In this document: positions 24,803 through 46,900 of the stretch, piece by piece | How positions within the stretch are numbered: the stretch's first letter is position 1 | Layout of the letters: each line of letters starts with the position of its first letter | Source: Methanomassiliicoccales archaeon | GTDB lineage: Archaea > Thermoplasmatota > Thermoplasmata > SG8-5 | Direction of reading: 5' to 3' | Assembly (NCBI GenBank): GCA_030612505.1 | Contig: JAUWNU010000001.1 | Span: 1,233-65,232, forward strand | Length of the DNA: 64,000 nt | Notes under the pieces: model-generated | The model's input: only the letters and a program-made list of their open reading frames with translations | Told to the model about the DNA's origin: nothing | Database searches by the model: none | Translations under genes and position numbers: made by a program

Positions 24803-25300
24803 TCAACCTATAATGTTTTTCAGTATTTCTTCAACCGCCTTCCTCAACCCGCCGTCGCCCCTTGCCAGCTTGAACCTCAATCCCATTCTCTCCGCTATCT
24901 CCCGGTCGCTTTCAAAGTCCCCCACAAACCATGAATTTGCATAGTCCACGTCATACTTCTCATTGACCTGGTCGAATAATCCAGTTTCAGGCTTTCTGCA
25001 TTTGCAATTGTCCTCTGGAGCATGGGGACAGTAAAACACTTCCTCCACAATTCCGCCGCCTTCCTCTATCTCGAAAAGCATATTGTTGTGAATGACCTCA
25101 AGTCCCTCTTCTGTCAAGAGTCCCCGGCCAATTGGTGACTGATTGGTAATAATAATAATCTTGTAGCCAGCTCCAGATATTTCTGCTATGGCCTTTATTG
25201 CGCCTTCCAGGAACTCAAATTCTGGCCATGAAAGTACATACTTCCCAAGCTCGAGACGGTTAATGACTCCATCACGGTCCAGAAAGACAAATTTATCCAC
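24803..25300 (-). CDS. gmhB: D-glycero-D-manno-heptose 1,7-bisphosphate phosphatase (HAD-IIIA, GmhB)
   Basis: FLDRDGVIN motif I. HAD-IIIA size (165 aa). Operon with gmhA, hddA and hddC. Confidence 0.8.
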   Translation of the reverse strand: MDKFVFLDRDGVINRLELGKYVLSWPEFEFLEGAIKAIAEISGAGYKIIIITNQSPIGRGLLTEEGLEVIHNNMLFEIEEGGGIVEEVFYCPHAPEDNCKCRKPETGLFDQVNEKYDVDYANSWFVGDFESDREIAERMGLRFKLARGDGGLRKAVEEILKNIIG

Positions 25301-25886
25301 GCCTGGCCAACTCCTCTTCCTTGAGCATTAGAGTTGTCAAATGGTCAACAAGCATGTGTATGTCTTCGGTTTTCTGCATATTGTGAACTGGCACAATGAG
25401 GCATAAATCTACCATATCCTTAATCTTGCCGCCGTCAAAGCCAGTTATTCCCACAGTGGTCCCATCATTCTCGTTTGCATAGCTTATTGCCCGCAGCACA
25501 TTCTCGGAATTTCCGGAGCCAGAGATTCCAACAACAATATCCCCCGGTTCCATGAGATTCTTCAATTGCTCTATGAAAATGTCCTCATAACATGAATCAT
25601 TACCCCATGCCAGCATCTGTGGAATATTATCCGCAAGACTCAGTACCTTAAAACGAGGTACCCCTTCAACAATTGTGCCTTTGGCCAGGTCGCTGGTGAA
25701 GTGAGAAGCTGTTGAAGCACTTCCACCATTGCCGCAAAAAAATATTTTGCGATTATCTGCCCTGGCTTCCATGAAAATGGTGGCCAGTTGGTCAAAAAAA
25801 TCTGCATTATTCACCTTGATATCCTCAAGTATCCGGATAATATCGTTCAGGTAGTCGTTTATAAATTTTTCACGGAATTCATTCAT
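25293..25886 (-). CDS. gmhA: Phosphoheptose (sedoheptulose-7-phosphate) isomerase GmhA (SIS domain)
   Basis: SIS motif FFCGNGGSASTASHFTSDL. About 195 aa. Confidence 0.85.
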   Translation of the reverse strand: MNEFREKFINDYLNDIIRILEDIKVNNADFFDQLATIFMEARADNRKIFFCGNGGSASTASHFTSDLAKGTIVEGVPRFKVLSLADNIPQMLAWGNDSCYEDIFIEQLKNLMEPGDIVVGISGSGNSENVLRAISYANENDGTTVGITGFDGGKIKDMVDLCLIVPVHNMQKTEDIHMLVDHLTTLMLKEEELARRG

Positions 25887-25890
25887 TTTA

Positions 25891-26901
25891 TCAATCTCCG
25901 TTGATTATTGTGGCGCCTTTTTTATCGAAATGGAAGTCCAGCGGGCTTAAACCTTCCTTCACCATGGCCTTGGTAACTGCTTTCTGATGCGGTTTATCAC
26001 AATACACCATGAAGTAACCTCCGCCACCTGCACCTGTGAGCTTACCGCCAAGTGCGCCGTTCTTCTTGGCCAGTTCATACATCTTATCGATTCTGGGATT
26101 AGAAATACCCTTGGCTAGATTTTTCTTGAACTGCCATGATTCGTCCAGAAGTCGCCCGAACTCATTCAGGTCTCCAGACTCTAGAGCCTTCTTAACCTCA
26201 AAAGCTATCTCTTTAATTTTATGAAGTGACTCAACAACTTCTCCCTTATCATCTCTTGTAGATTTATCCTGGCTCTTGAGAATCTTTGAGGACTCGCGGG
26301 TTCTGCCAGTGAAGAAGAGCATGATATCATCCTCCATGCGAACACGAACTTCCCTGGCTATATTGAGAGGTTCAACTTCCACAGTTCCATCTTTATTAAA
26401 TTGCATGAAATTTACACCGCCAAAGGCAGCAGCATACTCATCTTGCTTGCCAATTGGCATCTTCAGTTCATTGTATCCAATATCATATGCCAGTTCAGCT
26501 ATTTCCTGCTTTGTGAGTTTTAATCTCTCAAGCTCATTAATGATATTGATTATATTTACTGTCACAGTGCCAGATGAACCTAATCCAGTGCCCGGCGGAA
26601 TCTCACTTGCCATGAATATATTAAGGCCGCGCTGAACATTAAAATGCTTTAGAACAGCAACTGGAATATCAAGCCCTTTTCCCAGCTTCAGGTCATAAAA
26701 ATCCTTCACAGTATGATGAACCTGCAAATCCGAAGAAATGAGCTGAATTCGGTCATCCAGTCTTATCTCTAGAATGGTGTAAAAATACTTGTTTATGGCT
26801 GCGCTTACAACAACTCCACCATACTTCTCGTAGTATGATGCTAGGTCTGTCCCGCCTCCGCCAAAGCTTATTCTTACTGGTGAACGACTAATCAGTGTCA
26901 T
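25891..26901 (-). CDS. hddA: GHMP kinase, D-glycero-D-manno-heptose 7-phosphate kinase (HddA-type)
   Basis: GHMP motif PPGTGLGSSGTVTV. Context between gmhA and a nucleotidyltransferase. Confidence 0.75.
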   Translation of the reverse strand: MTLISRSPVRISFGGGGTDLASYYEKYGGVVVSAAINKYFYTILEIRLDDRIQLISSDLQVHHTVKDFYDLKLGKGLDIPVAVLKHFNVQRGLNIFMASEIPPGTGLGSSGTVTVNIINIINELERLKLTKQEIAELAYDIGYNELKMPIGKQDEYAAAFGGVNFMQFNKDGTVEVEPLNIAREVRVRMEDDIMLFFTGRTRESSKILKSQDKSTRDDKGEVVESLHKIKEIAFEVKKALESGDLNEFGRLLDESWQFKKNLAKGISNPRIDKMYELAKKNGALGGKLTGAGGGGYFMVYCDKPHQKAVTKAMVKEGLSPLDFHFDKKGATIINGD

Positions 26902-27589
26902 TTATTTCCCTTCTGGCCAGTTCCAGTCCTTCTGGGGTTCCTATATCATAGAACCTCTGGCTGGTCAATAGTCCAAAAAGGCGACCTGTATTTATTAATT
27001 TTGGGAATATGGATTCCTCCAGGGAAAATATACGTCCAGGCGCATAATCCAGTATATCTCTGCTGAAAAGTGAAAGTCCGGCTTCCAGGCCGTTCATTGA
27101 GTCCGGCGAATTCTTCTTGATATAGTCCATTATTCGCCCATCTGGCATTATGCGAGTATTGTTTGGCGCGATATTGTCATTGTTCAGATAAATTGAAATT
27201 ACACCCTGGGCATCATTCTCCTCCTGAACTCTTGCCAGATGCCTTAATTCCAGCGGTAAATAACTATCTCCAAATGCAAAGAAGAATTTTTCGTCAAGCA
27301 AATGCCTGGCATTCAGCAGAGCGCCTCCGGTTCCCAGAGGTTCAAGCTCCACAGAATGAACTATTTCAACACCATGCTGGCTGCCGTCTCCAAAATGCTC
27401 TTCAATATGCTCATGAAGATGGCCGGTGCAGAACACGAATTTCTGAATGCCTTGGGCTTTGAAATATTCAACCAGTATCTCCAGAAAAGGACGCTGGCCG
27501 AAGGGAATCATTGACTTGGGAATGTCATATGTTAATGGATGAAGCCTTGTTCCCAGGCCACCGCAAAGAAATACTGCCTGCTTTACCAT
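26888..27589 (-). CDS. hddC: Sugar-1-phosphate nucleotidyltransferase, D-glycero-D-manno-heptose 1-phosphate guanylyltransferase (HddC-type). Start set at MVKQAVFLCGG; the longer ORF-track N-terminus runs into the repeat element.
   Basis: AVFLCGGLGTRLHPLTYDIPKSMIPF (GGxGTRL signature). About 230 aa. Confidence 0.75.
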   Translation of the reverse strand: MVKQAVFLCGGLGTRLHPLTYDIPKSMIPFGQRPFLEILVEYFKAQGIQKFVFCTGHLHEHIEEHFGDGSQHGVEIVHSVELEPLGTGGALLNARHLLDEKFFFAFGDSYLPLELRHLARVQEENDAQGVISIYLNNDNIAPNNTRIMPDGRIMDYIKKNSPDSMNGLEAGLSLFSRDILDYAPGRIFSLEESIFPKLINTGRLFGLLTSQRFYDIGTPEGLELARREINDTD

Positions 27590-27721
27590 AATATCACTTG
27601 TAAACCACCAGGCCTTAAAATATTTGGCGTTCTTATTCATGCCTGTATGTTTCCAAAAGGCCAGTCGCACACCTAACTTCTCGGAACTATCGGTTCCGAG
27701 TTTATTAAACACGCGCCACAC

Positions 27722-27785
27722 CCTAATACCGCTGCTTTCGGGTATGGCCCGAAAGCAGAGCAACCTTCAGGTTTGCGGATACAGG
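27722..27785 (+). repeat. Partial copy of the hairpin element (GCTGCTTTCGGGtatggCCCGAAAGCAGAG) fused to the GAACCTTCAGGTTTGCGGAT motif
   Basis: Shares both sub-motifs with the 15586-15818 region. Confidence 0.65.
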
Positions 27786-27838
27786 GTGCTCATCAAAATG
27801 ATATATTTCATTTTATTGGATTGGCGTGTTTTTAATAA

Positions 27839-27921
27839 GGGCTCCCAGGTATCCGATAGGGATACCGCTGCTTTCGGGCGTTAACCCGAAAGCAGACCAT
27901 CCTTTAGGGTGGGGAGCCCTC
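27839..27921 (+). repeat. Copy 2 of the approx. 70-nt hairpin element, here embedded in an outer inverted repeat GGGCTCCC...GGGAGCCC
   Basis: GATAGGGATACCGCTGCTTTCGGGCGTTAACCCGAAAGCAGACCATCCTTTAGGGTGGGGAGCCCTCA, more than 90 percent identical to 15749-15818. Confidence 0.7.
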
Positions 27922-27965
27922 ATTTGATTAGAAATGTACGGTATGCGACGATCATTCACGCGTTA

Positions 27966-28916
27966 TTATTTGGAATATACATAGGGATTTTCCAATAGCC
28001 AGCGCACTGTTCTGCGAATCGTTTCCTCAATATTAACCTGTGGTTTCCAGCCATATGCCATAAGCTTCGAAACGTCCAGATGAACAAGGGGAGAATCACC
28101 AATCCAGCCACGCTCTCCTCCAGTGAACTTGTACTCAACATTATTCAGACCTAGCTCATCAGTAATAATGTCTGCCACGCTCTTCACTTCTATGAACTCG
28201 GTCTGGCCGATATTGAATAGCTCGGCATTGCCAGGGGTATTTTCATACCCAGTGAAGAAGCCGTCAATGCAATCGCCGATATAACAATAAGATTTTCTTG
28301 CTGTTCCATCGCCCAGTATTTCCAGCTGGGCAGGGTTAGCTTTCAGCTTTTTCACGAAATCATAGGTCACACCATGGGGGTGCCGCTCTCCCTGAATTGA
28401 AACAAAGCGATACATCCAGCTTTTGATTCCATATGCCTCGGTGAATGCTTCAATAAAGCCCTCGCAGGCCATTTTTGATGCACCATAGAATGAGGTTTGC
28501 CTTGGGTGATAAGTTTCAGGTGTTGGAAATACATCCGGCTCCCCATAAGTTGCCGCTGTTGAACTGAAAATTATCTGTTTCACATCATTGAGCCGCATTG
28601 CCTCCAGAATATTGTAAGTGACTATGATATTCCTGTCTATATCTCGAAAGGTGTCCTCAAGTCCATGACGCACATCAGCATTTGCAGCCAGATGGAATAC
28701 CGCATCAGCATCTTTCAGCGCATCCTTGGTCTTCTCCATGTCTCCCAGGTCGAAATTTAGAAGCTTGACAGCATCTTTGTCCAGGTGATGTTGAATATTT
28801 TCTATATAGCCAGTGCTCATATTATCTATAATTGTAACATCATGCCCCTGCTTGACCAGACGGTCAACAACATGGCTGGCAATGAACCCGCATCCTCCTG
28901 TGACTATTGCTTTCAT
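27966..28916 (-). CDS. NAD-dependent epimerase/dehydratase (extended SDR; UDP-glucose 4-epimerase-like or heptose epimerase)
   Basis: N-terminal MKAIVTGGCGFIASHVVDRL (GxxGxxG), the YxxxK catalytic region, and ITGYENTPGNAELFNIGQ. Confidence 0.8.
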   Translation of the reverse strand: MKAIVTGGCGFIASHVVDRLVKQGHDVTIIDNMSTGYIENIQHHLDKDAVKLLNFDLGDMEKTKDALKDADAVFHLAANADVRHGLEDTFRDIDRNIIVTYNILEAMRLNDVKQIIFSSTAATYGEPDVFPTPETYHPRQTSFYGASKMACEGFIEAFTEAYGIKSWMYRFVSIQGERHPHGVTYDFVKKLKANPAQLEILGDGTARKSYCYIGDCIDGFFTGYENTPGNAELFNIGQTEFIEVKSVADIITDELGLNNVEYKFTGGERGWIGDSPLVHLDVSKLMAYGWKPQVNIEETIRRTVRWLLENPYVYSK

Positions 28917-29378: not shown

Positions 29379-31697
29379 TTGAATAATACAAGAGGGGAAG
29401 CCATGAGGCAATCTACTTTGCAATTCAAGTGGGCAGTGATATTGACCAGTATTCTAATGATAAGCAGCACACTGGCTGCTGCCATGATAGTTGGTTCCAC
29501 CTCACCAGATGGAGGATTGGAAACCCTAAATGCTGGAGAACCGAACATCTTCTGGATTGGATTCAATGACACTGCAGGAACATCCAGGCTTGACCAGATG
29601 GTTGATGTTGAGAACTGGTATAATTTCACATGTGGATTCAATTACAGCTAGGGCTTTTTCAATTGCGAGATTATTGTAGAGGCCTGGTATGACTGTGGGC
29701 TGGCAGGAAACAGTTCTGCTTACCCACCAGAAACAGAGGACAACCGGAGTCTGGCCTTCAGCCTTCTATACGATGTTGCGACAGTCTCTTACACCATACA
29801 GTACCCGGGAGCAACACCAGGTACCATGGAGATAGCTATAAACGATTCCTGGGACACTGCTGTCATTGACTGGGTGCACCCAACCAACTCCCCAATGGAG
29901 GACATACTTGCACTGACAATACCAATTTACCTGGGACCGCAGATAAGAAATGCAGATGGCAATGGCTTTGGCTCTGGAGATTTAGATTATAATTCAGACC
30001 CAAATAATGCCTTACTGGACATAAACAGCTGGGACTTCGAGATCACTGTAAGGGACTCTGCAAATACTTCACTGGCTTCTTCCAGCTACGGAGAGTTCGG
30101 AATCAACCCGCATTGTGATATTTCTGTTACTGGAAATCCTGTTGGGGAAGCACCACCTGGCACTGCCGCTACTCTCCTGGCAAATCCAACTCATATCACC
30201 TATTCAGCTAACAATGATTATTGGGTCAATGTTTCTGTGACTAATCTTCTGGAAAATGGTGTAGGGCCAGCTTCTATTTCTGCAACCGATGTAGAAGTTC
30301 AAAATTCTGACCCATATGCAACTACTGGTAACTCAGATATATCCGCACAAACATATTTCCCTGGCCCAGGTATTGATATGCAAGTCTGGGGACAGCCAGG
30401 TATTCCAATGAATGCCCCAGGAAATGGAACAATAGCTACTGGCCCCTGGGTATCTGATTACAATGCAGCAATGTATGGGCTAAATGACTATACCCAGCTT
30501 GATTGGTGGATCACGGTTAGTGCAGCTACGCCAGAAGGGGTTTATTATGGAGATATCACAATTACAATAGAAGATTCTAATGGAAACACAGTAATGGACC
30601 AGACTACTCAGATAATTGTCAATGTTGTTTTCCCTCATTTATATTGGATTGGATTCAATGGAACAGGCATGAACTCAAAACTTGACCAGGTTGTAGATAC
30701 TGATAACTGGTACAATTTTACAGTGACTGGCAATTATTCACAGGGTTGGAACGGCCTCCAGGTGGAGATAAGGGCATGGTATGATAATGGTAATATTGGC
30801 TTTATGTCAACATATCCTCCTGTAACTCCTGAAAATAAAAACCTGGCATTCAGTATTACATATGAAGTTTTCAGTGGAATTTGCACTGTATATTATCCAA
30901 TAGGGCCGCAGGTTCAGGTAGGAACAGTCAGTGATGTGATCACATGGATAAATCCAATAAACATAGGAGAAGACTGGCATACTGTCAACATTCCAGTTTA
31001 CCTTGGAAATTCATTGATTTCCGCTGATGGTATGGGCTTCGCCAGTGGTGACCTTGCCTATCACTCTGACCCTAATTTGGCCTTGCAGGATGCTTTCAGC
31101 TGGGACTTTGAGGTCATTCTCAGGGATGCAATCAACCCAACAGCCTTGGACTTAAGCTATGCAGAATTCGGCCTTGACAACTCAACGCCCAGCTTTCCAA
31201 TATCTCTAGACGCTGGCTGGAATCTTATTTCGCTGCCGCTTGAACAGGCAGATGAATATTTGCCATCTGTTCTGAGTTCCATTGACGGCCAGTATGATAT
31301 TGTGAAATACTATGATGCCACTGACCAAAATGACCCATGGAAAACCTACAGAATAGGCGCATCAACCAATGATTTATTTTCAATTGATAGGACAATGGGT
31401 TTCTGGATTCATCTTACAGCAAATAATGGCGACCAGACATTGACGACAGGTATTGAAGGCACTTTCCCACCAGCCGCAGTAACTCTATACGCTGGCTGGA
31501 ATCTTGTTAGTTATCCTTCCATATCCCCGGATACTGTCGCAAATGCCTTATGGGGCACAGGAGCCGATATAGTCGAAGTATTTGACCCTGCAGAGCCTTA
31601 TTTGATAAGAGAGGTAAATGCGGATTATATGATGCAGCCTGGAGAAGGTTATTGGGTTCATGTTCCTGCGGACACAATATGGATGGTTGATTGGTAA
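29379..31697 (+). pseudogene. Secreted protein gene with two approx. 330-aa tandem repeats and a C-terminal GWNL domain, interrupted by a single in-frame TAG at 29649-29651. Either a pseudogene, a sequencing error, or split into ORFs 29379-29651 and 29826-31697.
   Basis: Both ORFs are in the same frame. The N-terminal signal peptide is in ORF1. The repeat motif NIFWIGFNDTAGTSRLDQMVDVENWYNFT (ORF1) matches LYWIGFNGTGMNSKLDQVVDTDNWYNFT (ORF2), and the alignment continues across the stop. Confidence 0.65.
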
Positions 31698-31774: not shown

Positions 31775-34700
31775 GTGATTATACATATTATGTCCAATAC
31801 AAAGTTAAAGGTGTTCATAATGGAGAGGAAAGATGTTTTTGTGCGCGGCCTTTCGATTGTTCTTGTAATATCAATGGTTTTTGGTTCAATACCATATTTC
31901 ACAATGGCCTCGGAGACCGTAGGCCAGATTGATATTGAAGTGACTAATCAAGAATTGGCAACCTATAATCTGGCTGTTTCCGAAATAGAGCTCAAGGAGA
32001 TTATTCCTGTTGAGGAAAATCAGGGTTCGCCGGCGCCAAGCCCATTTGCCACATTTGAGATTATGTATGCGGATTCGGCTATTGATCAGGGTGCTGGAGC
32101 AGTGCCCGAGGCAACTGGCACTCCTGATGATGTTCGCTTTTCATTCGGTGGAAATGCAAATTATGTAAGAGCTAGCGGCTCTACCTGGGGAGCTGGAGCA
32201 GGCTCAATCCTGTCAGTGGAAATCGCAGCAGAATGGTCATCTAGTGGTCTGACTGATGATGGTGCAATTATCCAGTATTATGATTCTGGAATTGGCGGCG
32301 TGGGAGCCACAAAGACAGCTGTGGATGCAAACAACTATGCTGTTGATAACACACTCTATCTGGACATAACCGCAGACAAGGCTAGCTGGACCTGGACTGA
32401 TGTGGGTAATGTCAACCCTGAGATATATTACCTCAAAGCCGGAGGCCCGGACGGCGGAACTCTAAGCATTGATGCACTCTGGATACGGGTACAATATGAA
32501 TCCATTTCAATTGACTATGATATCCCTGTGACCGTTGGCTGGAACCTTATAAGCGTTCCTTCGGTACAGGGAAACACCGACATTCTCACAGTACTGGATG
32601 ATGCTGGCGGCGATACTACCTGGGAGAGAGCTTCACATTACAATCCCCTGATAGCTGATAATCTATGGCAGTCCTATTCTATTTTCAAACCACCTACCCT
32701 GAATGAGCTGAACGATGTGAACAATAAGCTTGGCATCTGGGTGGACATAACAGATGTGGGAAGCGATGGCCTTCTCACAGTAAGCGGCAGCCCGCCTTCC
32801 ATGACTGCAATCAATCTCTATGCAGGCTGGAACCTTGTTGGGTATCCCTGCTTGGAAAGCCAGATGGCTATGAATTCACTGGCTGGCGTACCATACGATG
32901 CTCTGGAATGCCATGATGGTGGAGCACCATACCTACTCAGAACAATGCTGAACACAGAAATGATGGTTCCCGGTATTGGTTACTGGATAAAGGTAACCAG
33001 CGATTGTGTATGGAATGTGGGAGACATTACACCACCTACATTTGCAGGTCTTGTTTCTGCCCTGGATGCTGGAACCGGAGGAAGCGTTCTGCTGAACTGG
33101 AATCCGGCAACAGACCCCTCATACCCCATTACCTACAATATTTACATGGCCACAACATCTGGCGGCCAGGACTTTGGAACTCCGGATTATATTACAGACC
33201 TGACAGATTTCCAGGTTGATGGTTTGACAGACAATCAGGACTATTATTTCGTGGTAAGGGCAAAGGACTCTGCTGGCAATGAGGATTCAAACCTGGTTGA
33301 GAAAACAGCAATTCCAACAACACCAGATGCTACAAGCCCCTGGATAACAGCAACTGTTCCTGCAGATGCAGCAACAGGAATCGGCATTGCCCAGTCAATT
33401 ATAATTACCTTTTCAGAATCAATCAATACAGGTACATTCGTTTATTCCTGCGCACCCAACCCAGGCGGTTGGATAGAAACATGGGATACATTTGTGGAAA
33501 CAAATGATAGAGTAACCCTGACCCGCAATGACCTGGCTTTCGACACATTGTACACATTCCAGGTAACAGCAGCGGATGACCTGGCAGGCAATCCCCTGGT
33601 TGCCGGACCGGCACTGAACCCATGGACATTCACGACTATTGCAGCCCCAGACCTTACAGGACCAGTAACTTCTGGAGTATCAGCAACACCCAATCCCACC
33701 GATGGTGCTGGCACAGTCACATTAACAGCAACTGTTGATGATTCAACCACTGGCGGCTCTAATATTGCAGAGGCAGAGTACTTCGTGGATTCAGTAGGCG
33801 CTGACGGAAGTGGAACACTAATGGTAGCCAGTGATGGAAATTTCAACTCTGTGACAGAGGGCGTAACCGCTTCAATTGATGTTTCTGGATGGGCGCTGGG
33901 AACCTACACCTTGTATGTGCACGGACGGGATGCTTCAGGAAACTGGGGTGCTACAGACAGTACAATACTAGATGTCACCAATACACCTGATATCACAAGC
34001 CCCTGGATTGTAATAACAGCACCGGTGGACGGAGCAACTGGCGTATTAATTGGCCAGTCAATTGTAATTACTTTCTCGGAATCAATTAACACAGGCACAT
34101 TCGCCTACACCTGCACACCGAACCCAGGTGGCTGGGGCGAATCCTGGGACGCTGCAGTCGAGACCAATGACAGAGTAACATTAACCCACAGTGACTTTGC
34201 ATTTGACACATTATATGATTTCCAGGTAACAGCGGCAGACGACCTTGCTGGAAATCCCCTGGCAGCCGGACCAGTTCCGAACCCCTGGACATTCACAACC
34301 GAGCTGGAACCGACACCACCACAGGTTGTAGAGCCAACTTCACCTGCAAACGGAGCAATAGATGTGCCAGCCACATCAAACATCCAGATAACTTTCACAG
34401 AGGCCATGAACGAGGCATCTGTGGAATCCTGGTTCAATATTAATCCGGCAACAGCAGGAACATTCTCATGGAATCCAGGCAGTACAATTCTCACTTTCAC
34501 ACCCACAGGAGACCTTGCATTTGACCAGGTATACACCGTGACGATTGACGGTCTGGTGGAGGACCAGGAAGCCGAGACACTGGACGGCGATTATGACGGC
34601 GTTTCCGAGGGAAGCCCGACAGATGATTATGCCTTCTCGTTCACAACGGAAGCGGCACCCACGCCGCCCCAGGTGGTAGAACCGACGAATCCGGCAAACG

Positions 34701-37483
34701 GGGATGTAAACGTTCTAGTTACAGCAGCCATCCAGATACCGTTCACCGAGGCCATGAATGAGGCAAGCACCGAGGCGGCGTTCTCCATCGGCCCGGTTGT
34801 CGCAGGTGCATTCTCCTGGAATGTGGCAAGCGATATAATGACGTTCACGCCGTCCGCCGACCTATCGTATGAAACCACCTACACGGTCACCATTGATGGA
34901 ACCGCCCAGGACCAGCAGGCCGAGACACTGGACGGTGATTATGATGGTGTTTCCGAGGGCTCGCCGACGGACGATTATTCATTCTCATTCACCACGGAGG
35001 CAGCGGTCACACTCCCACAGGTCACGTCCACCATTCCGGTAAACGGTGCCGCGGGCGTTCTGGTGACCGACCCGATAATAATAAACTTCAACATGGCAAT
35101 GTGCGAGGATGGAAACGGCAAGGCACCCTGGGACGCGGGTTGTGTAGAAGGGGCGTTCACGGTAACCTATGGCGCGACCACATTGACCGCAGGAGACTTC
35201 ACGATATCCTGGAACGCAGCAAATGACCAGATCACCTTCATTCCCGTTACTTCCTACCCCTACGGAACAGTGATGAGCGTGACAGTTGACGGCACGGCCT
35301 TGGAAACCACGGAAACGTACACCCTGGACGGGAATTACAATTCAGTATCCGAAGGCTCCCCGATAGATGACTATTCGTGGAGCTTCACCACAGAGCCAGC
35401 ACCCACACCGCCGCAGGTTGTGGAACCGACATCCCCGCCGAATGGAGCGGTTGATGTCTTGATCACATTGGTCATACAGGTAACCTTCACGGAGGCCATG
35501 AACGAGGCAAGCACCGAGGCAGCGTTCTCCATCGGCCCGGTTATCGCAGGCACGTTCTCCTGGAACCCCAGCAGCACTATTCTGACGTTCACGCCATCGG
35601 CCGACCTCGCGTACGATACTGTATATTCGATAATCATCGCTGGAACCGCGCAGGACCAGGAGGCCGAAACACTGGACGGCGATTATGACGGCGTTTCCGA
35701 GGGAAGCCCGACAGATGACTATTCATTCTCGTTCACCACCCAGGCAGCACCCACGCCACCCCAGGTAATCTCCACATCACCCACCGACGGAGCCATTGGC
35801 ATCTCTTTATCCACGACAATCCAGATTACCTTCTCCGAGGCCATGAACGAGGCAAGCACCGAGGCAGCGTTCTCCATCGGCCCGGTTGTGGCCGGTGTGT
35901 TCTCCTGGAACCCAGGCAGCACAATTCTCACGTTCACACCATCCGCCGATCTATCGTATGGAACCACCTACACGGTCACCATCGATGGCACTGCCCAGGA
36001 CCAGCAGGGCGAGACACTGGACGGCGATTATGACGGTGTTTCCGAGGGCGCGCCGACGGACGATTACACATTCGGTTTCACCACCGAGCTTCCGCCGCCC
36101 CCGCAGGTCACCAGCCACTCGCCAACCGATGGGCAGAGCAATGTCCCGCTGAGCGAACCGATCGTGATCAACTTCAACATGGCAATGAGCGAGGATGGCA
36201 ATGGCAAGGCACCCTGGGACGCGGGTTGTGTAGAAGGAGCCTTTAGCATGACCGGCGGACTGACCGCAGGTGACTTCACGATATCCTGGAACGCTGGTGT
36301 CGATCAACTTACTTTGACACCGGAAACCCCATACCCGAGCGGCACGGTCCTGACGGTCACCATAGATGGTACGGCGGAGGAATCCACAGGCACCCAGACA
36401 TTGGACGGTGACTATGACGGCACAAGCGAGGGCAGCCCCACTGACGATTACTCCTGGAGTTTCACCACGGATTCCGGCCCATCAACACCGCCACAGGTCG
36501 TCGAGCCGACCGCACCGTTCAACGGCGAAACCAATGTTGTAGCGAGCACCAACATCGTGATTACATTCACCGAGGCCATGAACGAAGCGTCAGTAGAATC
36601 CTATTTCTCCATCTCGCCAGCAGCAGCAGGGGCATTCTCATGGAACCCCGGAAGCACTATTCTCACCTTCAACCCGAATCCGGACCTGTCCACGACCACC
36701 ACATACACCGTGACCATTGACGGACTGGCAGAGGACCAGGAAGCGGAGACACTGGACGGCGATTATGATGGAACCAGCGAAGGCAGTCCGACAGATGATT
36801 ATTCATTCTCGTTCACAACCGAGGCTGGCTCGGTCAACAGATATGCGGTTTGTGTGGGGATAGACAAGCACGATGACGGCACAACCACTTGTATATACGC
36901 TGACAACGATGGCCAGGATTGGGGGAATGAACTTAATTCCCAGGGGTATTCCGTAAGCTCGCGCCTGAATACCGCTGCTGATAAGGCGGTCATACTGGGA
37001 GATATTGCAGACATGGACACTTCTGAAAATGCTGGTGACTATTGTGCCTTCACATTCGCTGGCCATGGTGGTGTCTCTGGTGGAACCCATTACATCATTT
37101 GTGCGGACTGGGATGGAACATGGGGAACGGTGATCAGCGACAGCGAGTTTGAAGCGGCCTTCTCTGGTTTCAGCAGCATGCATATATTCATATTCTTTGA
37201 CAGCTGCAACAGCGGTGGAATGAGCGAAGTTGCCGCGGCTGGCAGACTCCTGATTACGGCCTGTACGGCCGTCCAGAGCTCCTATGGCGGGGATGCCGCC
37301 ATGCAAAATGGTGTCTGGACCTGGTACTTCGTCGAGGACGGTATCCAGACACAGGGATACACCATAATGGAGGACTGTTTCAACTACGCCGCACCCGAGG
37401 CAAAGAGTTGGTTAACCACCAATTACGGAGTCACCATGGACCCCCAGATATTTGACCAGTACACAGGGGATTTCTATCTTTGA
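31775..37483 (+). CDS. Giant secreted protein (1902 aa): signal/TM, GWNL domain, FN3 domain, about 9 tandem Big_5 (SbsA-type Ig-like) repeats, and a C-terminal caspase-like (clan CD) peptidase domain
   Basis: FN3 at SVLLNWNPATDPSYPITYNIYMA. The Big_5 consensus PTPPQVVEPTSPANGAxDV...IQITFTEAMNEAS...FSWNPGSTILTFTP...YTVTIDG...ETLDGDYDGVSEGSPTDDY repeats about 9 times. The C-terminal region has FAGHGG (His) and FFDSCNSGG (Cys), in caspase-fold dyad order. Confidence 0.85.
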   Translation: MIIHIMSNTKLKVFIMERKDVFVRGLSIVLVISMVFGSIPYFTMASETVGQIDIEVTNQELATYNLAVSEIELKEIIPVEENQGSPAPSPFATFEIMYADSAIDQGAGAVPEATGTPDDVRFSFGGNANYVRASGSTWGAGAGSILSVEIAAEWSSSGLTDDGAIIQYYDSGIGGVGATKTAVDANNYAVDNTLYLDITADKASWTWTDVGNVNPEIYYLKAGGPDGGTLSIDALWIRVQYESISIDYDIPVTVGWNLISVPSVQGNTDILTVLDDAGGDTTWERASHYNPLIADNLWQSYSIFKPPTLNELNDVNNKLGIWVDITDVGSDGLLTVSGSPPSMTAINLYAGWNLVGYPCLESQMAMNSLAGVPYDALECHDGGAPYLLRTMLNTEMMVPGIGYWIKVTSDCVWNVGDITPPTFAGLVSALDAGTGGSVLLNWNPATDPSYPITYNIYMATTSGGQDFGTPDYITDLTDFQVDGLTDNQDYYFVVRAKDSAGNEDSNLVEKTAIPTTPDATSPWITATVPADAATGIGIAQSIIITFSESINTGTFVYSCAPNPGGWIETWDTFVETNDRVTLTRNDLAFDTLYTFQVTAADDLAGNPLVAGPALNPWTFTTIAAPDLTGPVTSGVSATPNPTDGAGTVTLTATVDDSTTGGSNIAEAEYFVDSVGADGSGTLMVASDGNFNSVTEGVTASIDVSGWALGTYTLYVHGRDASGNWGATDSTILDVTNTPDITSPWIVITAPVDGATGVLIGQSIVITFSESINTGTFAYTCTPNPGGWGESWDAAVETNDRVTLTHSDFAFDTLYDFQVTAADDLAGNPLAAGPVPNPWTFTTELEPTPPQVVEPTSPANGAIDVPATSNIQITFTEAMNEASVESWFNINPATAGTFSWNPGSTILTFTPTGDLAFDQVYTVTIDGLVEDQEAETLDGDYDGVSEGSPTDDYAFSFTTEAAPTPPQVVEPTNPANGDVNVLVTAAIQIPFTEAMNEASTEAAFSIGPVVAGAFSWNVASDIMTFTPSADLSYETTYTVTIDGTAQDQQAETLDGDYDGVSEGSPTDDYSFSFTTEAAVTLPQVTSTIPVNGAAGVLVTDPIIINFNMAMCEDGNGKAPWDAGCVEGAFTVTYGATTLTAGDFTISWNAANDQITFIPVTSYPYGTVMSVTVDGTALETTETYTLDGNYNSVSEGSPIDDYSWSFTTEPAPTPPQVVEPTSPPNGAVDVLITLVIQVTFTEAMNEASTEAAFSIGPVIAGTFSWNPSSTILTFTPSADLAYDTVYSIIIAGTAQDQEAETLDGDYDGVSEGSPTDDYSFSFTTQAAPTPPQVISTSPTDGAIGISLSTTIQITFSEAMNEASTEAAFSIGPVVAGVFSWNPGSTILTFTPSADLSYGTTYTVTIDGTAQDQQGETLDGDYDGVSEGAPTDDYTFGFTTELPPPPQVTSHSPTDGQSNVPLSEPIVINFNMAMSEDGNGKAPWDAGCVEGAFSMTGGLTAGDFTISWNAGVDQLTLTPETPYPSGTVLTVTIDGTAEESTGTQTLDGDYDGTSEGSPTDDYSWSFTTDSGPSTPPQVVEPTAPFNGETNVVASTNIVITFTEAMNEASVESYFSISPAAAGAFSWNPGSTILTFNPNPDLSTTTTYTVTIDGLAEDQEAETLDGDYDGTSEGSPTDDYSFSFTTEAGSVNRYAVCVGIDKHDDGTTTCIYADNDGQDWGNELNSQGYSVSSRLNTAADKAVILGDIADMDTSENAGDYCAFTFAGHGGVSGGTHYIICADWDGTWGTVISDSEFEAAFSGFSSMHIFIFFDSCNSGGMSEVAAAGRLLITACTAVQSSYGGDAAMQNGVWTWYFVEDGIQTQGYTIMEDCFNYAAPEAKSWLTTNYGVTMDPQIFDQYTGDFYL

Positions 37484-38824
37484 TCATGAACTAGGCTTGC
37501 GTCTGACAGCGATGAGGATACAAGATATAATGACAATTCCAATGAGGGCTGCCCATAACACCCGGTTGTCAGATCGATTTACACCTTCCGGTCCAATGGT
37601 CCTGTAGACGAGCCAGGTATTATCTGTTGGTTCGGGAAATTGCTCGGCAGTGTTGGTCTCCCAGATAATCATCAAATCGGTATCTAGAGGAAGTAACGCT
37701 GGGCCGCCGAGTAACAATCCCCCTCCATCTCGCCTGTCACCATCCCCGGTTGTGAGTTCGATGGTGCCGCTCCATTCACCATCAACTAATATGCGTATCA
37801 CAATATCAGAATCAGCACCCGTGGTGATGGCCGGGTCATGGGATTGCCAGCAGATATAAAGGGCATCGTCGAACACAGTCATTGTGGGTTTGAAATCGTC
37901 GCCAGAATCGTCCGTCGTGAGTTCGACCAGTGAAGAATTCCAGTGGGAGCCGTCGTAGGCCGCCACGACTATGTCCCAGTCATCACCCGAACTAATAATC
38001 GGATCATTCGTTCTCCATGCCACGCGAAGTTTATCGTCGTGGGTGCATATGGCGGTGTCCGAGTTGTCCTCTGTGCTGGTTGATGTGATATCAGAGATAT
38101 TCTGGCTCCACGAAAAACCATCGAAGGACCGCACGAGAATGTCGCTTCCCTCGTCATTCCCAAAGTTAGTCGTGTAACTCTGCCAGGCCGCATAGGCATT
38201 TCCCTGGAACGTTGTGATGGAAGGGGACCAGTTGTTGCCATTGGTGCCCTCTGACACTACAATCAGTTGCCCCCATTCTCTATTCTCATCCAAACACCTG
38301 GAAACAATGTCATATTGTGAGCCAGTCCACCTCTGCCAGACCACCAGAAGCTTCGAGCCTAGGCTTACGGCCACCGGCATTCTGTCGTTCTGGTCATCGT
38401 TCTCTGGACTCACGAGAATAAGGGTATCGTTATGGCTATTGACCTGTTTCATCACTATCTCGTCGTCTATTCCCGGGTCAACCAATTCAGAATCGCTCTG
38501 CCAGAGTACATAAATCTCACCACAATGTCTTACAAGTTTTGGCATCCCACTGTACCCATCGTCCCAAATAACCAATGGCGGTGACCATTGGCTAGAATAT
38601 TCAGAATACATTATGCATTCTGTGCTGTGACAGTAAGCCGGATCATTGGTGCTCCAAACAAGGTGTCCAGTATTTCCATCATTCAATGCAAAGGGGTCCC
38701 TGTCCATGCCGAGGGCACCGGGCAGGGTGAACTCTGTGACGCCAGTACCACCCACAAAACCAGAACCAATAAACAGCGGACCGGAAATGACCAAAACAAT
38801 GAACAGAAGGACTCGGTACTTCAT
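37484..38824 (-). CDS. Surface-anchored 7-bladed beta-propeller protein (distant BNR/sialidase-fold relative) with a signal peptide and C-terminal TM anchor
   Basis: Seven repeats of W-x-(S/T)-x-D-x5-9-D-x-D-I-V-x10-15-W. C-terminal VLWAALIGIVIISCILIAVRRKPSS. Confidence 0.65.
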   Translation of the reverse strand: MKYRVLLFIVLVISGPLFIGSGFVGGTGVTEFTLPGALGMDRDPFALNDGNTGHLVWSTNDPAYCHSTECIMYSEYSSQWSPPLVIWDDGYSGMPKLVRHCGEIYVLWQSDSELVDPGIDDEIVMKQVNSHNDTLILVSPENDDQNDRMPVAVSLGSKLLVVWQRWTGSQYDIVSRCLDENREWGQLIVVSEGTNGNNWSPSITTFQGNAYAAWQSYTTNFGNDEGSDILVRSFDGFSWSQNISDITSTSTEDNSDTAICTHDDKLRVAWRTNDPIISSGDDWDIVVAAYDGSHWNSSLVELTTDDSGDDFKPTMTVFDDALYICWQSHDPAITTGADSDIVIRILVDGEWSGTIELTTGDGDRRDGGGLLLGGPALLPLDTDLMIIWETNTAEQFPEPTDNTWLVYRTIGPEGVNRSDNRVLWAALIGIVIISCILIAVRRKPSS

Positions 38825-40990: not shown

Positions 40991-43900
40991 TCAGGGTGGA
41001 ACAGTGAACTCCCATGTATAGTCTAATACATTACCATAAATGTCCTCTGCAACTATTTGACAGACCACAGTAGTTCCAGGAGCAAAACCTGCTTCGTGAT
41101 AGTATGAAACATTGTAACCGTCTGTGATGGGATCTAAATCGTAGAAAACAGAGAATGCGCTGACGTAAAGCCGGATAGTGCTTACTTCCACTCCAAACAT
41201 GTCTGTTATATGAATTGAAATTACAGGTGTTGTATTGGTCGATGCTCCATCTGGTGGAGGATATTCATTTGAATGCTGAGGTGGAATTGTATCGCTTATC
41301 ACAGTCCAAGTGCAGTTGTCTGTGACTTTCACCCAATAACCTTCACCGGCAGTCATTGTGACTGTGGTCAGATCGTAAACATCTCTTATGAGCATTGGTG
41401 CTGTGGAATCATAAACAGCTATACTTCCTACAGGTAATCCAGATAATGCGTCAGAAGCTAGTCTGTCATTGTATGAAGGATAGCCCACAAGGTTATAACC
41501 ATAGTACAAAGGTATCTCAGTAATTATAGGTTTACTTCCCATTACTGCCAATGTAGTATTAGCCGTTGCATGTATCCAAATACCCATTGTATGGTTAATG
41601 TATAGCAGGTTATTTTGATATTCTGGCTTATAGATGTTATAAGATTTCCAATAATCTAATCTTGTATCAAACCACCTTGCACGATCCCACTCGCCTTCTA
41701 TAGTGTAGAATGCAGACCGGATGTATGGATCGAATTGTATATTAGGCAGGGAAATCAGGTTCCAGCCTTCGTGCAATGGTAATAGGAAAGGTTCACTTAA
41801 TATGATTATTACTTCCTTGCTTTGGTTCATATATGCGTTTGGTGTGGCATAACCTATAAGGTTCTCATACGTTGCAGTTGCATAGTGGGGTGTGCTGAGT
41901 GTTCTAGTAATTGAATTCTCCACATATTCTGTACAGATAACCCAGTTAGTTCTTCCATTAATATTCGTGGTTCGTAATTCAACTAAATTGTGAGATGTAT
42001 CATTCACCCAAACGGTTGCATTAGAAGTGGGCTCAAGAGACTCATAGAGAACTTTTACATGGAGGAACCATTGGACTGTAAGATTTGATGAAGCATCCCA
42101 GTATATTGTATTGGTCTTATTGAAGGTTGTATTTAGAGAAACTGGGTGGGAGTCACCACCAATGCTGAAGTCATAACCGGTACTATTTGTAATAGTGGAA
42201 TTTACTATCAGGAAAGAGGAATCATAACAATAGATTGCATCGTTTACAGTGTCTGAAATAATGTTGTTTCTGAGTTCGGTTCTCAGAACGTATTTTATAT
42301 TAATATTCTCCAATACGATTTTTCCCTGCTCGTCAACACTGACATTCAGAGGTATAGTGACATCCCCTAAACCTGTACCTGATACTCTACTGTTCAACAA
42401 GCTTACTAATCCATTGTCTGTTTCATTGATGAAAACGATTTCATTAAATTCACCACTATACACCCAATCCTCAACACCATCATCTCCAATGTCAAGCTTA
42501 ACATTGCTTGAGAAAATGTCATCTCCAAATATTCTCATGTCAACAAAATGAATGTGTGTTGTTTGTTCTTCTTCACACATTTCTTGCCAGGCTACTATGT
42601 TTCCATGAATTGATTGACTAGGATTTGGGCTAATACCTGCTGTCAAAGAAAGAATGGTTGTATTACCATCAGATATGTCATATATGGCAACTCCAAATGG
42701 TCCAGGAACTGCATTGATTATCTGGTAAACTACTTTATCGCCCCAGATTTCCGGTTGCACATTATTATGAGCATTCGTAATCTTAACAGTCTCATTGTTG
42801 GAAAGATTGAACACATAGATATTCCACCAGTTATCCGATGTGACACCATCTTTGTCGCTTTGCCAAGCTATAAAATTATTATGGATACTTGGGGATGTGT
42901 TGATGGTTCCACTGCCAAGTGGGGTAATCCATTTTTCACTGTCATCTCCTCCACCATCTTCAAACACACCATTTAGTCCAAGGTCATATAAGTATATTGC
43001 ATATTCCCAACCTAGATATTTGTGCCATACAATCTTATTCCCAAAGATACAAGGAGCATCATCAATTTCAAGATTATTTGTTATTCTAGTCTCTTCGTTT
43101 GATGTCAGATTATACATATAAATTTCATAATTTCCGTCGCGAGAATCACGCCACACAACTTTATCGTTATGTATACTAGTAGAATAACCTCTGGAAACCT
43201 TGTTGGATAGTTCGGTTACAATATCTGCCGAGATATTATAAGAATATAGGTGATTTTCATATATCCAAACATATTGATCATCCCAAAGAGCACCTTGTAT
43301 TGCCATAATGTTACTTCCCACATCCACTAGATACTCCTCTTCCATAGTTGAAATATTGTAAGTAAAGAGGCTATAAACTCCTTCCCGTTTATCTAACCAG
43401 TATACTCGGTCTTCCCAAACATGTGCATAATGTTGACCCATTCCCGCTGGATTAGAAACTACTTCTACACTAGTTCCTAATGATTCTCCTGAAATCACGA
43501 AAGTTGACTCATCCAAAATAATGGCCCTGTTTGGAACAGTGAGTGTTGGTAGGGGATTAAGATACGACTCTGGATTGAAAAAGCCGAAATCTCTTTTTCT
43601 ACTCCCATCAGAAAGGCAATTTATTGAAAGTTCTGGAGAATAACTAGAATTTTCAAAATATACACCATAACCATTGATTGAAATGATATTATTTGCTATA
43701 TAAGGACCTGATGAACGGGAATATATTCCGTATGCTATGTTCTGGGAGATATTGTTGTTCATAATCGATGGATGTGAGCTATCACAAAATATACCATAGT
43801 TGTTCAATCTTATATTGTTCCCTGTTATATTCATTGGTTCTTCGTTTGAGTTTATGTAGATACCATAACTAAACAAAGATATTGTATTGTTCTCTATGGT

Positions 43901-46900
43901 AGTTTTTGCTGTTCCGTATATGCCTATTCCTCTTTGGGTTCCGGTTCCAGTGATGTTGTTCTCTTGAATTACAGGATAACATGTATAGGTGGTTGAGGTG
44001 GATCCATAAGCATACACTACATGCCCTGTTCCAGATTGTATGAAAGTATTGTTCTTAATGTTCGCTAAGCTATCGTAGCAGTAAATGAGGTTGGATGAGC
44101 TTCCAGAGATATTATTATGGGAAATAGTTGTTGGTCGTTTACCTCCATACATATAGATACCATAGGTGTTGCTTGAGAATATATTGTTGTAACTTATTGA
44201 CGGCCAAGAAGCAAAGAGATAGATGCCATAGGTGTTGCTTGAGGAAATATTGTTTCTTATTACCTCAGTACTAGAAGACCATACCATATAGCAACCATAT
44301 CTGTTTAGGAGTATATTGTTGTCTTCAACGATGGCATGACTACCTTGATCTCTTATACCAGCACCGGATGTATAACCGTATCCATTTGAAGTTATGTTAT
44401 TACCAGCGATTGTTGCACCAGAAGATTGTATATATATCCCACAATTATCATTTGAAGTTATGTTGTTTCCGCTAATTAATGACGTGTCGGATGAAGTACT
44501 CTTAATGCCAACCAGATTTAACTGAATTGTATTGTCGGTTATTGTGCTCTGAGACCACCATCCAGTAAGTATCCCGATGCCATCGTTGGAATTTATATGG
44601 TTCCGTGTTATAATCGCCATTGAACGTATCACAAATATTCCTTGATAATTCAGGGAGATTGTATTGTTATCGACTGTTGAAAGTCCACCTCCCTCTAAAT
44701 ATATTCCACGCACATTGTTTAAAGATATGTTATTGCCATCTCTTAAGACAGGGGACGCCGAGTTGCTATATACTCCATAATTAGTGTTTGAAATAATTGT
44801 ATTACCGATTATACTTGGGCTGGCTAAGATAGCCACAGATATACCGATAGTGTTCCAACCTATGTCATTGTTCTCTATAGTAGGGGCACTGTTATTTACA
44901 TAAATACCTCGTGGGTTTGAGCTTATATTGTTATTGTTGGCGATAATCAATGATGTGGCTGCCTCATTTATTTGTATTCCGTCATTCCAGTTATAATTGA
45001 TATTGTTTGCTTCAATATTTGAGGAACTATCTTTTCCAACCACGATGCCATGATAATTGTCTGTAAGGTTGTTTTTTGTAATATGGGGCGAAGAGTCACC
45101 AATAACAACTATCCCTGACCCTACATCGAAATCAAACATTACAACGAATTTGAAATATTCACCGGAATTATCATCGATAGCAATATTATCAGCAACATCT
45201 TTTGACTGAACCGCAAAATAGTATGTTACACCATGAAGCAAATTCGTAAGAAATACAATGTGGGCTGTGGTCTTTCTCGGGTTCGAAGCTGTTGTTAAGG
45301 GAGGTACATTGTCACCCCAAATTACCGTGCTGTCACTACTTTCGTCAGTGTCCCAGGTGATTGCCACAGTGCCATATGATAATCTTGTGACTGCAATATT
45401 GGAAATAATGGGCATCGTATCGTCGATAATAGCTGTGTCAATAGCTGTTGCCGGACTGCCTGTTCCATCATCTGCATCTTCATATTCAACAGTTATTGTG
45501 TCACCTGATTTTACCTGTAATATATTGTCTGGAGGATTTGAATCTCCATACTCCAATGTCGCACTGCCAGTAAAGTAACTGGAGCCTGAGACCGTCTCTG
45601 TCAAAGTGGACTGTAATAAATCTCCGGTTGGACTGCTCGCGAGGTTAATCATTATGTTTGGTATTGCTGTCAAGTCCGCATCGACCAAGTTTATTCCTGC
45701 TGTTGAGTTTGACTGATATGCCGTTTTATCAAATTCAACAATGCCTTTGCTTGTAGGTGTCCCGTGATAGTTCAGAACAATGGCATAATCCTGGTCAATC
45801 GCAGATGTGGCAGAAATACTATCCTCTAACAAACTTACGGCAATTACTCTTACTATGTAAGTTCCCACCAAAAGCTCCGAAGGATTGATGTACACACATT
45901 CTATATTGTTTATATCATCGTTTTGAATCAGAGATGAATCTGACCAACCGTTTGAAAATTGATTGCCATAATATACCGTACCATCAGGTGCAATCACATC
46001 AAGATCCAGGTTGTTTACCAAGGTCTTAGCTGCATTCGGCGAGCCTGGAGGATCTGTCCAGGCCATTGTGATCTTGAGCGGCTGGGTTGTATCTGTTACT
46101 GTGACCTTATACTCTTGCCATTGTCCGTTTTCCAATAACTGATGGTCATCATGTGTTATTGTGCCTACTGGCTCAAGGGCATTTGTCAGATTCATTCTAC
46201 CCCATCCCTCATTTCCGTTTGGTATATCTGGAGTGCCAATATCATCTGCACTGTTTATCAATACTGCCTTTATCATAGCCGGGCTCGGATCTACTCCGTA
46301 GAGATTTCTGTAGTATTCAATAAACAACGCGGCTCCGCCTGCGACATGTGGACATGCCTGGCTAGTACCTGAACACCACTGATAATCATCATCTATGTTT
46401 TGGTATCCTGCTGCAACCAGGCTTGGGCTTCCATCATGAGTTTGTAAAGAAGCAATCCATGTTCCAGGTGCGACAATGTCTGGTTTAATTCTTCCATCAT
46501 CAGTAAGCCCTCTGCTACTGAAGTAGGCAATTTCATCTGGGTTATCTGCTGCACTGCTCCCCTCTAGTCTGTAATTTTCTGATGCACCCACAGTGATTAC
46601 GTTTTTTGCATTCCCAGGGCTTCCTGTAGAACCTGCACCAGCACTACCTTCATTTCCTGCAGCAAATATCATAGTGTATTCTTGATCTCCAGCAGTATCA
46701 TTGTCAGCGTCTCTAACAAGGGCATCGAATTCAGCATCGTCTAGAGTGTACGCCCCATAACTCCTACTTCCCCAACTGTTACTACCTAGCACTGCTCCAC
46801 GAATAAAAGCATCTTTCACTAATTCTTGATTTGATGGGCCTTCCCAGGAATCTGAATCGCCAAATATCCTCTGAGCCAATATTTTGGCATTTGGTGCAAC

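Follow-up and report, generated by a model that had tools for sequence, protein, structure and literature searches.

Introduction

Prokaryotic relatives of caspases are known as orthocaspases or metacaspase-like peptidases (MEROPS C14B), among them MaOC1 of Microcystis aeruginosa and GSU0716 (PDB entry 3BIJ). They combine the C14 profile and the caspase-hemoglobinase fold with the motifs (S/A)GHG and D-x-C-x-SG and an acidic S1 pocket, all within a single-chain catalytic domain fused to accessory domains. Here, we analyze a gene from a Methanomassiliicoccales archaeon, located on a 64,000-nucleotide stretch of contig JAUWNU010000001.1 (the window), whose product, probably of 1887 amino acids, ends in a domain sharing all of these features. 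While the characterized orthocaspases are cytoplasmic, the window protein is predicted to be exported. Its peptidase domain, moreover, is placed at the extreme C-terminus behind an Ig-like stalk of about 1650 residues, lacks a long p20/p10 linker, and closes with a tail of the type D-x-Y-x-G-x-F-Y-L.

Extracellular caspase homologs as such have been noted before. According to a census from 2012, N-terminal helices or signal peptides, together with extracellular partner domains, occur in many prokaryotic caspase homologs (PMC3501461). In 2019, Klemencic et al. counted 93 archaeal p20 proteins, all with an intact catalytic dyad, 15 of which carry an N-terminal bacterial Ig-like (Big_7) domain (PMC6426788). 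The latter resemble the window protein in being archaeal, in having Ig-like domains on the N-terminal side, and in their dyad-intact C14 p20 region; Big_7 and PKD partners, as found there, also occur among the homologs of our domain. In contrast, the window protein carries Big_5 and fibronectin type III (fn3) domains as well as an undescribed domain referred to here as GWNL, and it is much longer. This earlier work was a domain census and assigned no function.

Secreted peptidases of clan CD, to which C14 belongs, are also known in other families from sediment Thermoplasmata and bacteria, namely gingipain (C25), clostripain (C11), and legumain (C13). They share clan and export with the window protein. 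These cysteine endopeptidases are directed at Arg/Lys or Asn, frequently carry Ig-like or adhesin domains, and have been implicated in the degradation of protein outside the cell (PMC6461988). From metagenome-assembled genomes (MAGs) of Thermoplasmata (Thermoprofundales), it was inferred that extracellular clan-CD peptidases as well as C14B peptidases are encoded and expressed there (PMC6461988). The MALT1 paracaspase, one of the best structural matches (TM-score 0.72-0.75), likewise is a single-chain, Arg-specific caspase domain beside Ig-like domains; however, it is eukaryotic, cytoplasmic, and activated by dimerization in a signaling complex, its Ig domains flank the protease, and sequence identity is 10-13%.

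A first-pass annotation of the window had described the protein as a clan-CD peptidase on a stalk of Big_5 repeats and had held that it represents no described archaeal surface-processing enzyme. As a claim of novelty, the latter view is not supported: the domain passes the Pfam threshold for C14, a relative already bears a caspase name at NCBI, and archaeal Ig-like orthocaspases and extracellular homologs are on record in the literature. The concept is already known, standard annotation recognizes the gene correctly, and no new principle is added; what distinguishes the protein is its length, its stalk of Big_5 repeats, the GWNL domain, and an extreme depletion of lysine and arginine. Discussions of prokaryotic caspase relatives usually center on programmed cell death and cytoplasmic signaling, and the locus studied here lies in a clade built for export.

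A C-terminal peptidase domain of family C14

The C-terminal 227 residues of the protein (hereafter the tail) reach 31.2 bits on the Pfam model Peptidase_C14 (PF00656), whose gathering cut-off is 21.4, and 25.8 bits when scored within the whole protein. The sole significant PDB sequence match is the caspase-like GSU0716 (3bij_A, E 2.9e-5), with an alignment that crosses both catalytic motifs. An AlphaFold2 model built from 67 sequences has a predicted local distance difference test (pLDDT) value of 96 and a predicted TM-score (pTM) of 0.92. When this model was compared with the PDB by Foldseek, the best 50 matches all belonged to C14, with E down to 4e-11 and a query-normalized TM-score of about 0.73 for the best ones; they comprise GSU0716, MALT1, caspases-9, -7, -11, and -1, CED-3, and yeast and plant metacaspases. 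The PF00656 match covers positions 2-175 of the 233 in the profile, and the model shows the complete fold including the p10-equivalent strands and helices. As modeled, the tail has the caspase-hemoglobinase alpha/beta fold, and on all features examined it is a bona fide member of family C14, of the metacaspase/orthocaspase type.

Of the five families that the first-pass annotation had proposed for comparison (C14, C13, C25, C11, and CHAT), only C14 exceeds its threshold. Legumain/GPI8 (C13, PF01650) gives a partial match of 14.9 bits against a cut-off of 22.8; gingipain (C25), clostripain (C11), and CHAT have no Pfam match at E<=1 and are missing from the top 50 Foldseek matches. An NCBIfam scan of the protein returned nothing above the cut-offs, the caspase model of the EACC1-associated type (NF047832) reaching 14.4 bits where 140 are required. 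Structure prediction and fold comparison, which the same annotation had suggested as a check, thus yield a peptidase fold.

A word-index search with the tail recovered two proteins only; the family became visible when 1.84 billion cluster representatives were searched exhaustively with phmmer: 966 proteins are related at E<=1e-3 and 136 at E<=1e-10. Since the PF00656 score lies above the cut-off and 966 representative relatives exist, the two motifs are not a chance match. PF00656 is matched by 64 of 66 full-length homologs, with a best E of 8e-23, and the nearest relative (81% identity) is listed at NCBI as 'caspase family protein, partial [Thermoplasmata archaeon]'. Partner domains among the homologs are PKD, Big_5, PPC, Big_7, and fn3. 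An N-terminal hydrophobic segment is present in 84 of the 113 homologs with complete N-terminus; another 11 possess a membrane helix upstream of the domain, often behind a cytoplasmic zinc ribbon, which would also put the protease outside (together about 85%). In 98 of 115 homologs the domain ends no more than 25 residues from the C-terminus. By these sequence features, the tail appears to fall within a large clade whose C14 domains are exported and located at the C-terminus; the clade has at least 966 cluster representatives, most of them signal-bearing.

Catalytic dyad and predicted specificity

The motifs FAGHGG and FFDSCNSGG reported by the first-pass annotation are both present, starting at residue 1761 and, for the DSCNSGG part, at residue 1809 (GTG numbering, see below). 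They hold the catalytic His and Cys at a distance of 47 residues, close to the approximately 45 given there. In an alignment of 129 near-complete homologous domains, on which all conservation counts in this study are based, the His is kept in 127 and the Cys in 128. The dyad proposed by that annotation is therefore borne out by C14 profile, fold model, and conservation alike, and the tail is predicted to be a catalytically competent cysteine peptidase.

For TbMCA2, an S1 pocket formed by Cys92, Asp95, Ser156, and Asp211 around His158 and Cys213 was proposed (PMC4357240). Carrying these spacings over to our domain leads to Ala34, Asp37, Ala87, and Asp134 around His89 and Cys136. Asp37 is located on helix 1 at +3 from the Cys92 equivalent, while Asp134 precedes the catalytic Cys by two residues; both acids are highly conserved (Table 1). 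Among the homologs, residue 34 is a Cys in 65 cases and an Ala in 28, while residue 87 is a Ser in 116 and an Ala in eight. The pocket thus located is acidic and of the C14B type, which predicts cleavage after Arg or Lys, as an acidic pocket confers Arg/Lys specificity at P1 in the characterized C14B members.

The loop behind the catalytic Cys is short (approximately 12 residues) and the domain is modeled as one compact fold. We therefore expect a single-chain enzyme similar to GSU0716 or MALT1 rather than a p20/p10 heterodimer. Close relatives share the D-x-Y-x-G-x-F-Y-L tail, which the model packs against the rest of the domain with high confidence.

Gene, architecture, and predicted export

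The open reading frame (ORF) extends from 31775 to 37483 on the forward strand. The length of 1902 residues reported earlier is correct when counted from its first GTG; the true start, though, is probably ATG 31820, giving 1887 residues, because of a Shine-Dalgarno-like GGTG motif 6 nt upstream and because of the N-terminus of the closest full-length ortholog, P0003, which starts with MMERNNIFVRGLSIVLV and aligns with MERKDVFVRGLSIVLV of the window protein. Position 36830, where the first-pass annotation let the C-terminal domain begin, is in frame and corresponds to residue 1686, so that the interval 36830-37483 comprises the final 217 residues and the stop codon (37481-37483). Exact database look-ups of the protein with both alternative starts returned no identical record. 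Neither a tRNA nor an Rfam family nor a DNA-level tandem repeat was found in or around the gene, and an explanation at the RNA level was rejected on this ground.

Table 1. Features of the caspase-family gene and its surroundings; positions refer to the window.
Feature	Position	Strand	Remarks
Gene for exported (predicted) multidomain protein, 1887 aa	31820..37483	+	ATG start; mechanical ORF from GTG 31775 has 1902 aa
Predicted Sec signal peptide or N-terminal anchor, MERKDVFVRGLSIVLVISMVFGSIPYFTMA/SE	31820..31909	+	Kyte-Doolittle scan; cleavage versus anchoring inferred
N-terminal region, ~200 aa	31910..32500	+	No Pfam/NCBIfam match; conserved in P0003, L004, L010
Duplicated all-beta 'GWNLIS.P ... 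GxGYW' domain (GWNL), ~175 aa	32510..33031	+	BLASTP, alignment, AlphaFold2 model (pLDDT 90)
Fibronectin type III domain	33068..33286	+	Pfam PF00041, 30 bits (cut-off 25)
Stalk: nine Big_5 Ig-like repeats with interspersed Ig-like modules	33332..36820 (start approximate)	+	Pfam PF13205, 9 stretches, E 1.9e-122
C-terminal caspase-family domain (Peptidase_C14, clan CD), ~220 aa	36821..37480	+	Single-chain, without long p20/p10 linker
Asp37 of domain, predicted S1-pocket acid	36908..36910	+	TbMCA2 Asp95 equivalent; kept in 126/129 homologs
Catalytic His	37064..37066	+	CAT; residue 1764 (GTG numbering), domain residue 89
Asp134 of domain, predicted S1-pocket acid	37199..37201	+	TbMCA2 Asp211 equivalent; kept in 121/129 homologs
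Catalytic Cys	37205..37207	+	TGC; residue 1811 (GTG numbering), domain residue 136
Convergent neighbor, 446 aa	37484..38824	-	Signal peptide, Trp-rich repeats, C-terminal transmembrane anchor; abuts stop codon of caspase gene
ORF of 90 aa	29379-29651	+	Signal peptide
ORF of 623 aa	29826-31697	+	No signal peptide
GWNL domain in 623-aa ORF	31164-31694	+
Protein of 3308 aa with S8 subtilase domain	40991-50917	-
GWNL domain in 3308-aa subtilase	41228-41830	-
Three paralogs of ~1180 aa	51063-54605, 55406-58957, 60099-63623	+	BNR/sialidase-like repeats, Ig-like domains, two Big_5 each
Gene run SIS_2, GHMP kinase, nucleotidyltransferase, NAD-dependent epimerase	25293-28916	-	Conserved in L001, L004

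The sole hydrophobic segment of the protein comprises residues 10-27 of the 1887-residue form, with a basic N-region before it and TMA/SE behind it; the hydropathy scan of the whole protein revealed neither a C-terminal helix nor any further transmembrane segment. Due to this N-terminal signal-like segment, the exclusively extracellular-type partner domains, and the lack of a C-terminal anchor, the protein is predicted to be exported, in agreement with the extracellular location assumed earlier. An archaeosortase/PGF-CTERM system was rejected, as it requires a polytopic membrane enzyme acting on substrates that end in PGF plus a transmembrane helix, and our protein has a single N-terminal hydrophobic segment. 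A PGF-CTERM ending occurs in no real gene of the window, as the first-pass annotation had stated.

The approximately nine Big_5 repeats announced in that annotation were recovered as nine stretches by Pfam, which adds one fn3 domain. The array is interrupted by other Ig-like modules. For its designation as an 'S-layer-type' stalk we found no support. The repeats are diverged in DNA, and Tandem Repeats Finder reports nothing, for which reason an assembly artefact was rejected as an explanation of the array. A G+C content of 0.54-0.55 was observed across the Big_5 array and the caspase domain (34001-38000), compared to approximately 0.42 in the flanks. It is probably caused by the amino-acid composition, which is rich in Thr, Ala, Gly, Asp, and Pro, and not by recent transfer, since related MAGs have the gene in synteny. 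The Big_5 and caspase coding region (33442-37411) also contains several long antisense ORFs of 83-167 aa on the reverse strand, and similar ones occur in orthologous loci; most likely they are by-products of the codon composition of the repeats and not genes.

The GWNL domain spans residues ~230-405 and is composed of two halves, 'GWNLIS.P...MGIW' followed by 'GWNLVGYP...GxGYW'. It has no match in Pfam or NCBIfam, and its confident model has no fold match in the PDB at E<0.001. Copies exist in three large secreted proteins of the window: besides the caspase protein, in the 623-residue ORF upstream, at its C-terminus (34% identical by BLASTP), and in the 3308-residue S8 subtilase, near the C-terminus (38%). 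None of these three has a transmembrane helix at its C-terminus, whereas the BNR and Big_5 paralogs and the 446-residue neighbor do. In databases, related domains are found mainly in short hypothetical proteins; they are often C-terminal, in secreted bacterial and archaeal proteins. GWNL may be a shared module for envelope attachment or substrate binding.

Lysine and arginine account for only 1.6% of the residues of the caspase-bearing protein (31820-37480, forward strand) and 1.8% of the 623-residue ORF. Elsewhere in the window, other surface proteins contain 3.7-5.7% and cytoplasmic proteins 10-14%. The Big_5 stretch, approximately 890 residues long, has two lysines only. This scarcity fits a protection of the carrier from its own Arg/Lys-specific protease.

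Proposed role and alternative explanations

We consider it probable that the product of the gene, a highly acidic protein of many domains, is exported and that its C-terminal C14 peptidase performs extracellular Arg/Lys-specific proteolysis. The protein would be translocated by Sec and then either be released or be held at the envelope by its N-terminal part, i.e., by an uncleaved signal anchor or the GWNL domain. A long stalk, made up of nine Big_5 repeats and other Ig-like modules, would carry the protease at its distal end, and there the protease would, as a single-chain enzyme, cleave extracellular proteins after Arg or Lys. Its most probable role would be the degradation or trimming of environmental proteins (scavenging) or of envelope proteins, alongside the giant S8 subtilase encoded nearby, which has a GWNL domain as well. 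The low content of lysine and arginine would guard the carrier against self-digestion. Such a role fits the adjacent GWNL-sharing subtilase as well as the secreted clan-CD and C14B peptidases that published work infers to be encoded and expressed in sediment Thermoplasmata. If these enzymes are Arg/Lys-specific exoproteases, C14 would join C11, C13, and C25 in the clan-CD toolkit with which sediment and marine Thermoplasmata presumably attack detrital protein, and exported C14 enzymes would need to be counted in peptidase inventories.

Several points weigh against this interpretation. The signal call relies on hydropathy and sequence pattern only, and the specificity was deduced from sequence positions and not from a substrate complex. 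Position 87 is Ala where the family usually has Ser, and the Cys92 equivalent is Ala as well. A low content of lysine and arginine is common to the whole family (median 4.6-4.7%), such that the depletion may simply reflect the acidic exoproteome of the lineage. The nutritional role is suggested by analogy and by an unlinked neighboring protease gene; synteny with housekeeping genes is silent on function and implies no functional partner. In the literature library searched, no biochemical studies of archaeal orthocaspases or of members of the exported clade were found.

The first-pass annotation had suggested that the peptidase processes neighboring surface proteins or acts in self-cleavage and anchoring. 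This was pure speculation: neither a conserved sorting motif nor a partner in an operon was found, and the conserved neighbors are housekeeping genes of a syntenic block. A dedicated maturase or transpeptidase, which like a sortase would cut a signal on envelope proteins and attach them, has its models within clan CD, as PorU (C25) acts in type IX secretion and GPI8 (C13) in glycosylphosphatidylinositol anchoring. Our domain is of the same clan and predicted to be exported, the window is crowded with large surface proteins, and a surface-anchored neighbor is conserved next to the gene. However, profile and fold matches point to C14 and not to C13 (14.9 bits against the required 22.8) or C25, and instead of a shared C-terminal sorting motif, the neighboring surface proteins end in plain transmembrane anchors or the GWNL domain. 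Given further that a stalk of more than 1600 residues holds the enzyme at its tip, far from the membrane where anchoring would happen, and that homologs are very diverse in architecture without a conserved partner gene, we regard a maturase as improbable. Self-cleavage would correspond to a module acting in cis only, like the clan-CD cysteine protease domain of MARTX toxins, which would cut its own chain to release the stalk or the protease. A basic residue directly before the first strand, at the junction of stalk and protease (here Arg1689 in GTG numbering, in the sequence VNR/YAV; Lys in 71 and Arg in 26 of the 129 homologs), a Gly-Arg conserved after the catalytic Cys loop (79/129), and the very few other Lys/Arg sites in the stalk, due to which cleavage would be highly site-selective, could be taken as signs of it. 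A basic residue in front of strand 1, on the other hand, is general in metacaspase-type domains, cytoplasmic ones included. The loop following the Cys comprises only about 12 residues, the whole domain is modeled as one compact unit, and the rare basic residues are not tied to domain boundaries elsewhere in the protein, which leaves autoprocessing an unlikely function.

Loss of catalysis, with the domain serving as a pseudo-protease for binding or matching the motifs fortuitously, has some precedent in bacteria, where 8.6% of orthocaspases are without dyad (PMC6426788), and the family-consensus Ser87 is indeed replaced by Ala in our protein. Nevertheless, dyad and both S1 acids are present and nearly invariant across the homologs, profile and fold evidence is strong, and the survey of 2019 found no pseudo-variants in archaea (PMC6426788), so that we give this explanation hardly any credence. 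Alternatively, the protein could act outside the cell in programmed cell death or fratricide, either on the surface of its own cell or on neighboring cells. This idea was raised for exported bacterial metacaspases (PMC3501461), and the long stalk could conceivably reach neighboring cells. Against it stand the lack of a linked immunity, toxin, or regulatory gene, the location in a stable syntenic chromosomal block, and the lack of an experimental precedent. PADLOC gave a single, weak match (15.5 bits, E 0.0018) to a generic caspase model, for which reason a reading as defense system was rejected as well. An effector of cell death is accordingly very unlikely. A broader proposal would set the whole exported C-terminal C14 clade apart in function, as stalk-tethered sortase-like maturases or contact-dependent weapons, with GWNL as the envelope-attachment module shared by exoproteases; we likewise place little trust in it. 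Extracellular proteolysis thus remains our preferred interpretation.

Genomic context and neighboring genes

By its gene content, including a CDP-archaeol synthase, a KaiC-type ATPase, and an archaeal S-adenosylmethionine synthetase, the window is archaeal. A genome scan with an alignment of seven sequences identified relatives in MAGs of Thermoplasmata, Methanomassiliicoccales, and Thermoplasmatota. Seven loci preserve, in full or in part, the order of epimerase (reverse), caspase protein (forward), 446-residue protein, phosphoribosyltransferase, and CarS (all reverse), and KaiC (forward). Across these loci, identity amounts to 66-90% for the flanking housekeeping genes and to 40-79% for the surface protein, whose length ranges from ~750 to 1900 residues (750 to ~1530 in the syntenic orthologs). 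Since the flanks are more identical than the surface protein, whose length varies, the comparison points to a vertically inherited, fast-evolving surface gene with a changing number of repeats.

The convergent 446-residue neighbor contains seven or eight Trp-rich repeats of the type '..hhhW.s.d' and has no match in Pfam, NCBIfam, or PADLOC. It is adjacent in all orthologous loci that reach past the stop codon of the caspase gene, with only 23-31% identity.

Upstream of the caspase gene, the 90-residue ORF precedes the 623-residue ORF closely, in another frame, and holds a copy of the 'WIGFN..DQ.VD..NWYNFT' repeat found within the latter. The 623-residue gene, which the orthologous locus L001 lacks, appears to be frameshifted, be it as a pseudogene or by a sequencing error.

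The 3308-residue protein, located 3.5 kb downstream of the caspase protein on the opposite strand, is another large predicted exoprotease; it combines CARDB, the Peptidase_S8 subtilase domain, right-handed beta-helix/NosD repeats, and the GWNL domain. The three paralogs with BNR and Big_5 domains each end in a conserved 'NDWGWIGIIIFL' C-terminal transmembrane anchor, a mode of anchoring unlike that of the caspase protein. The gene run from SIS_2 to the NAD-dependent epimerase, just upstream of the surface-protein genes, resembles a pathway for nucleotide-activated heptose or another sugar and could supply the glycosylation of surface proteins.

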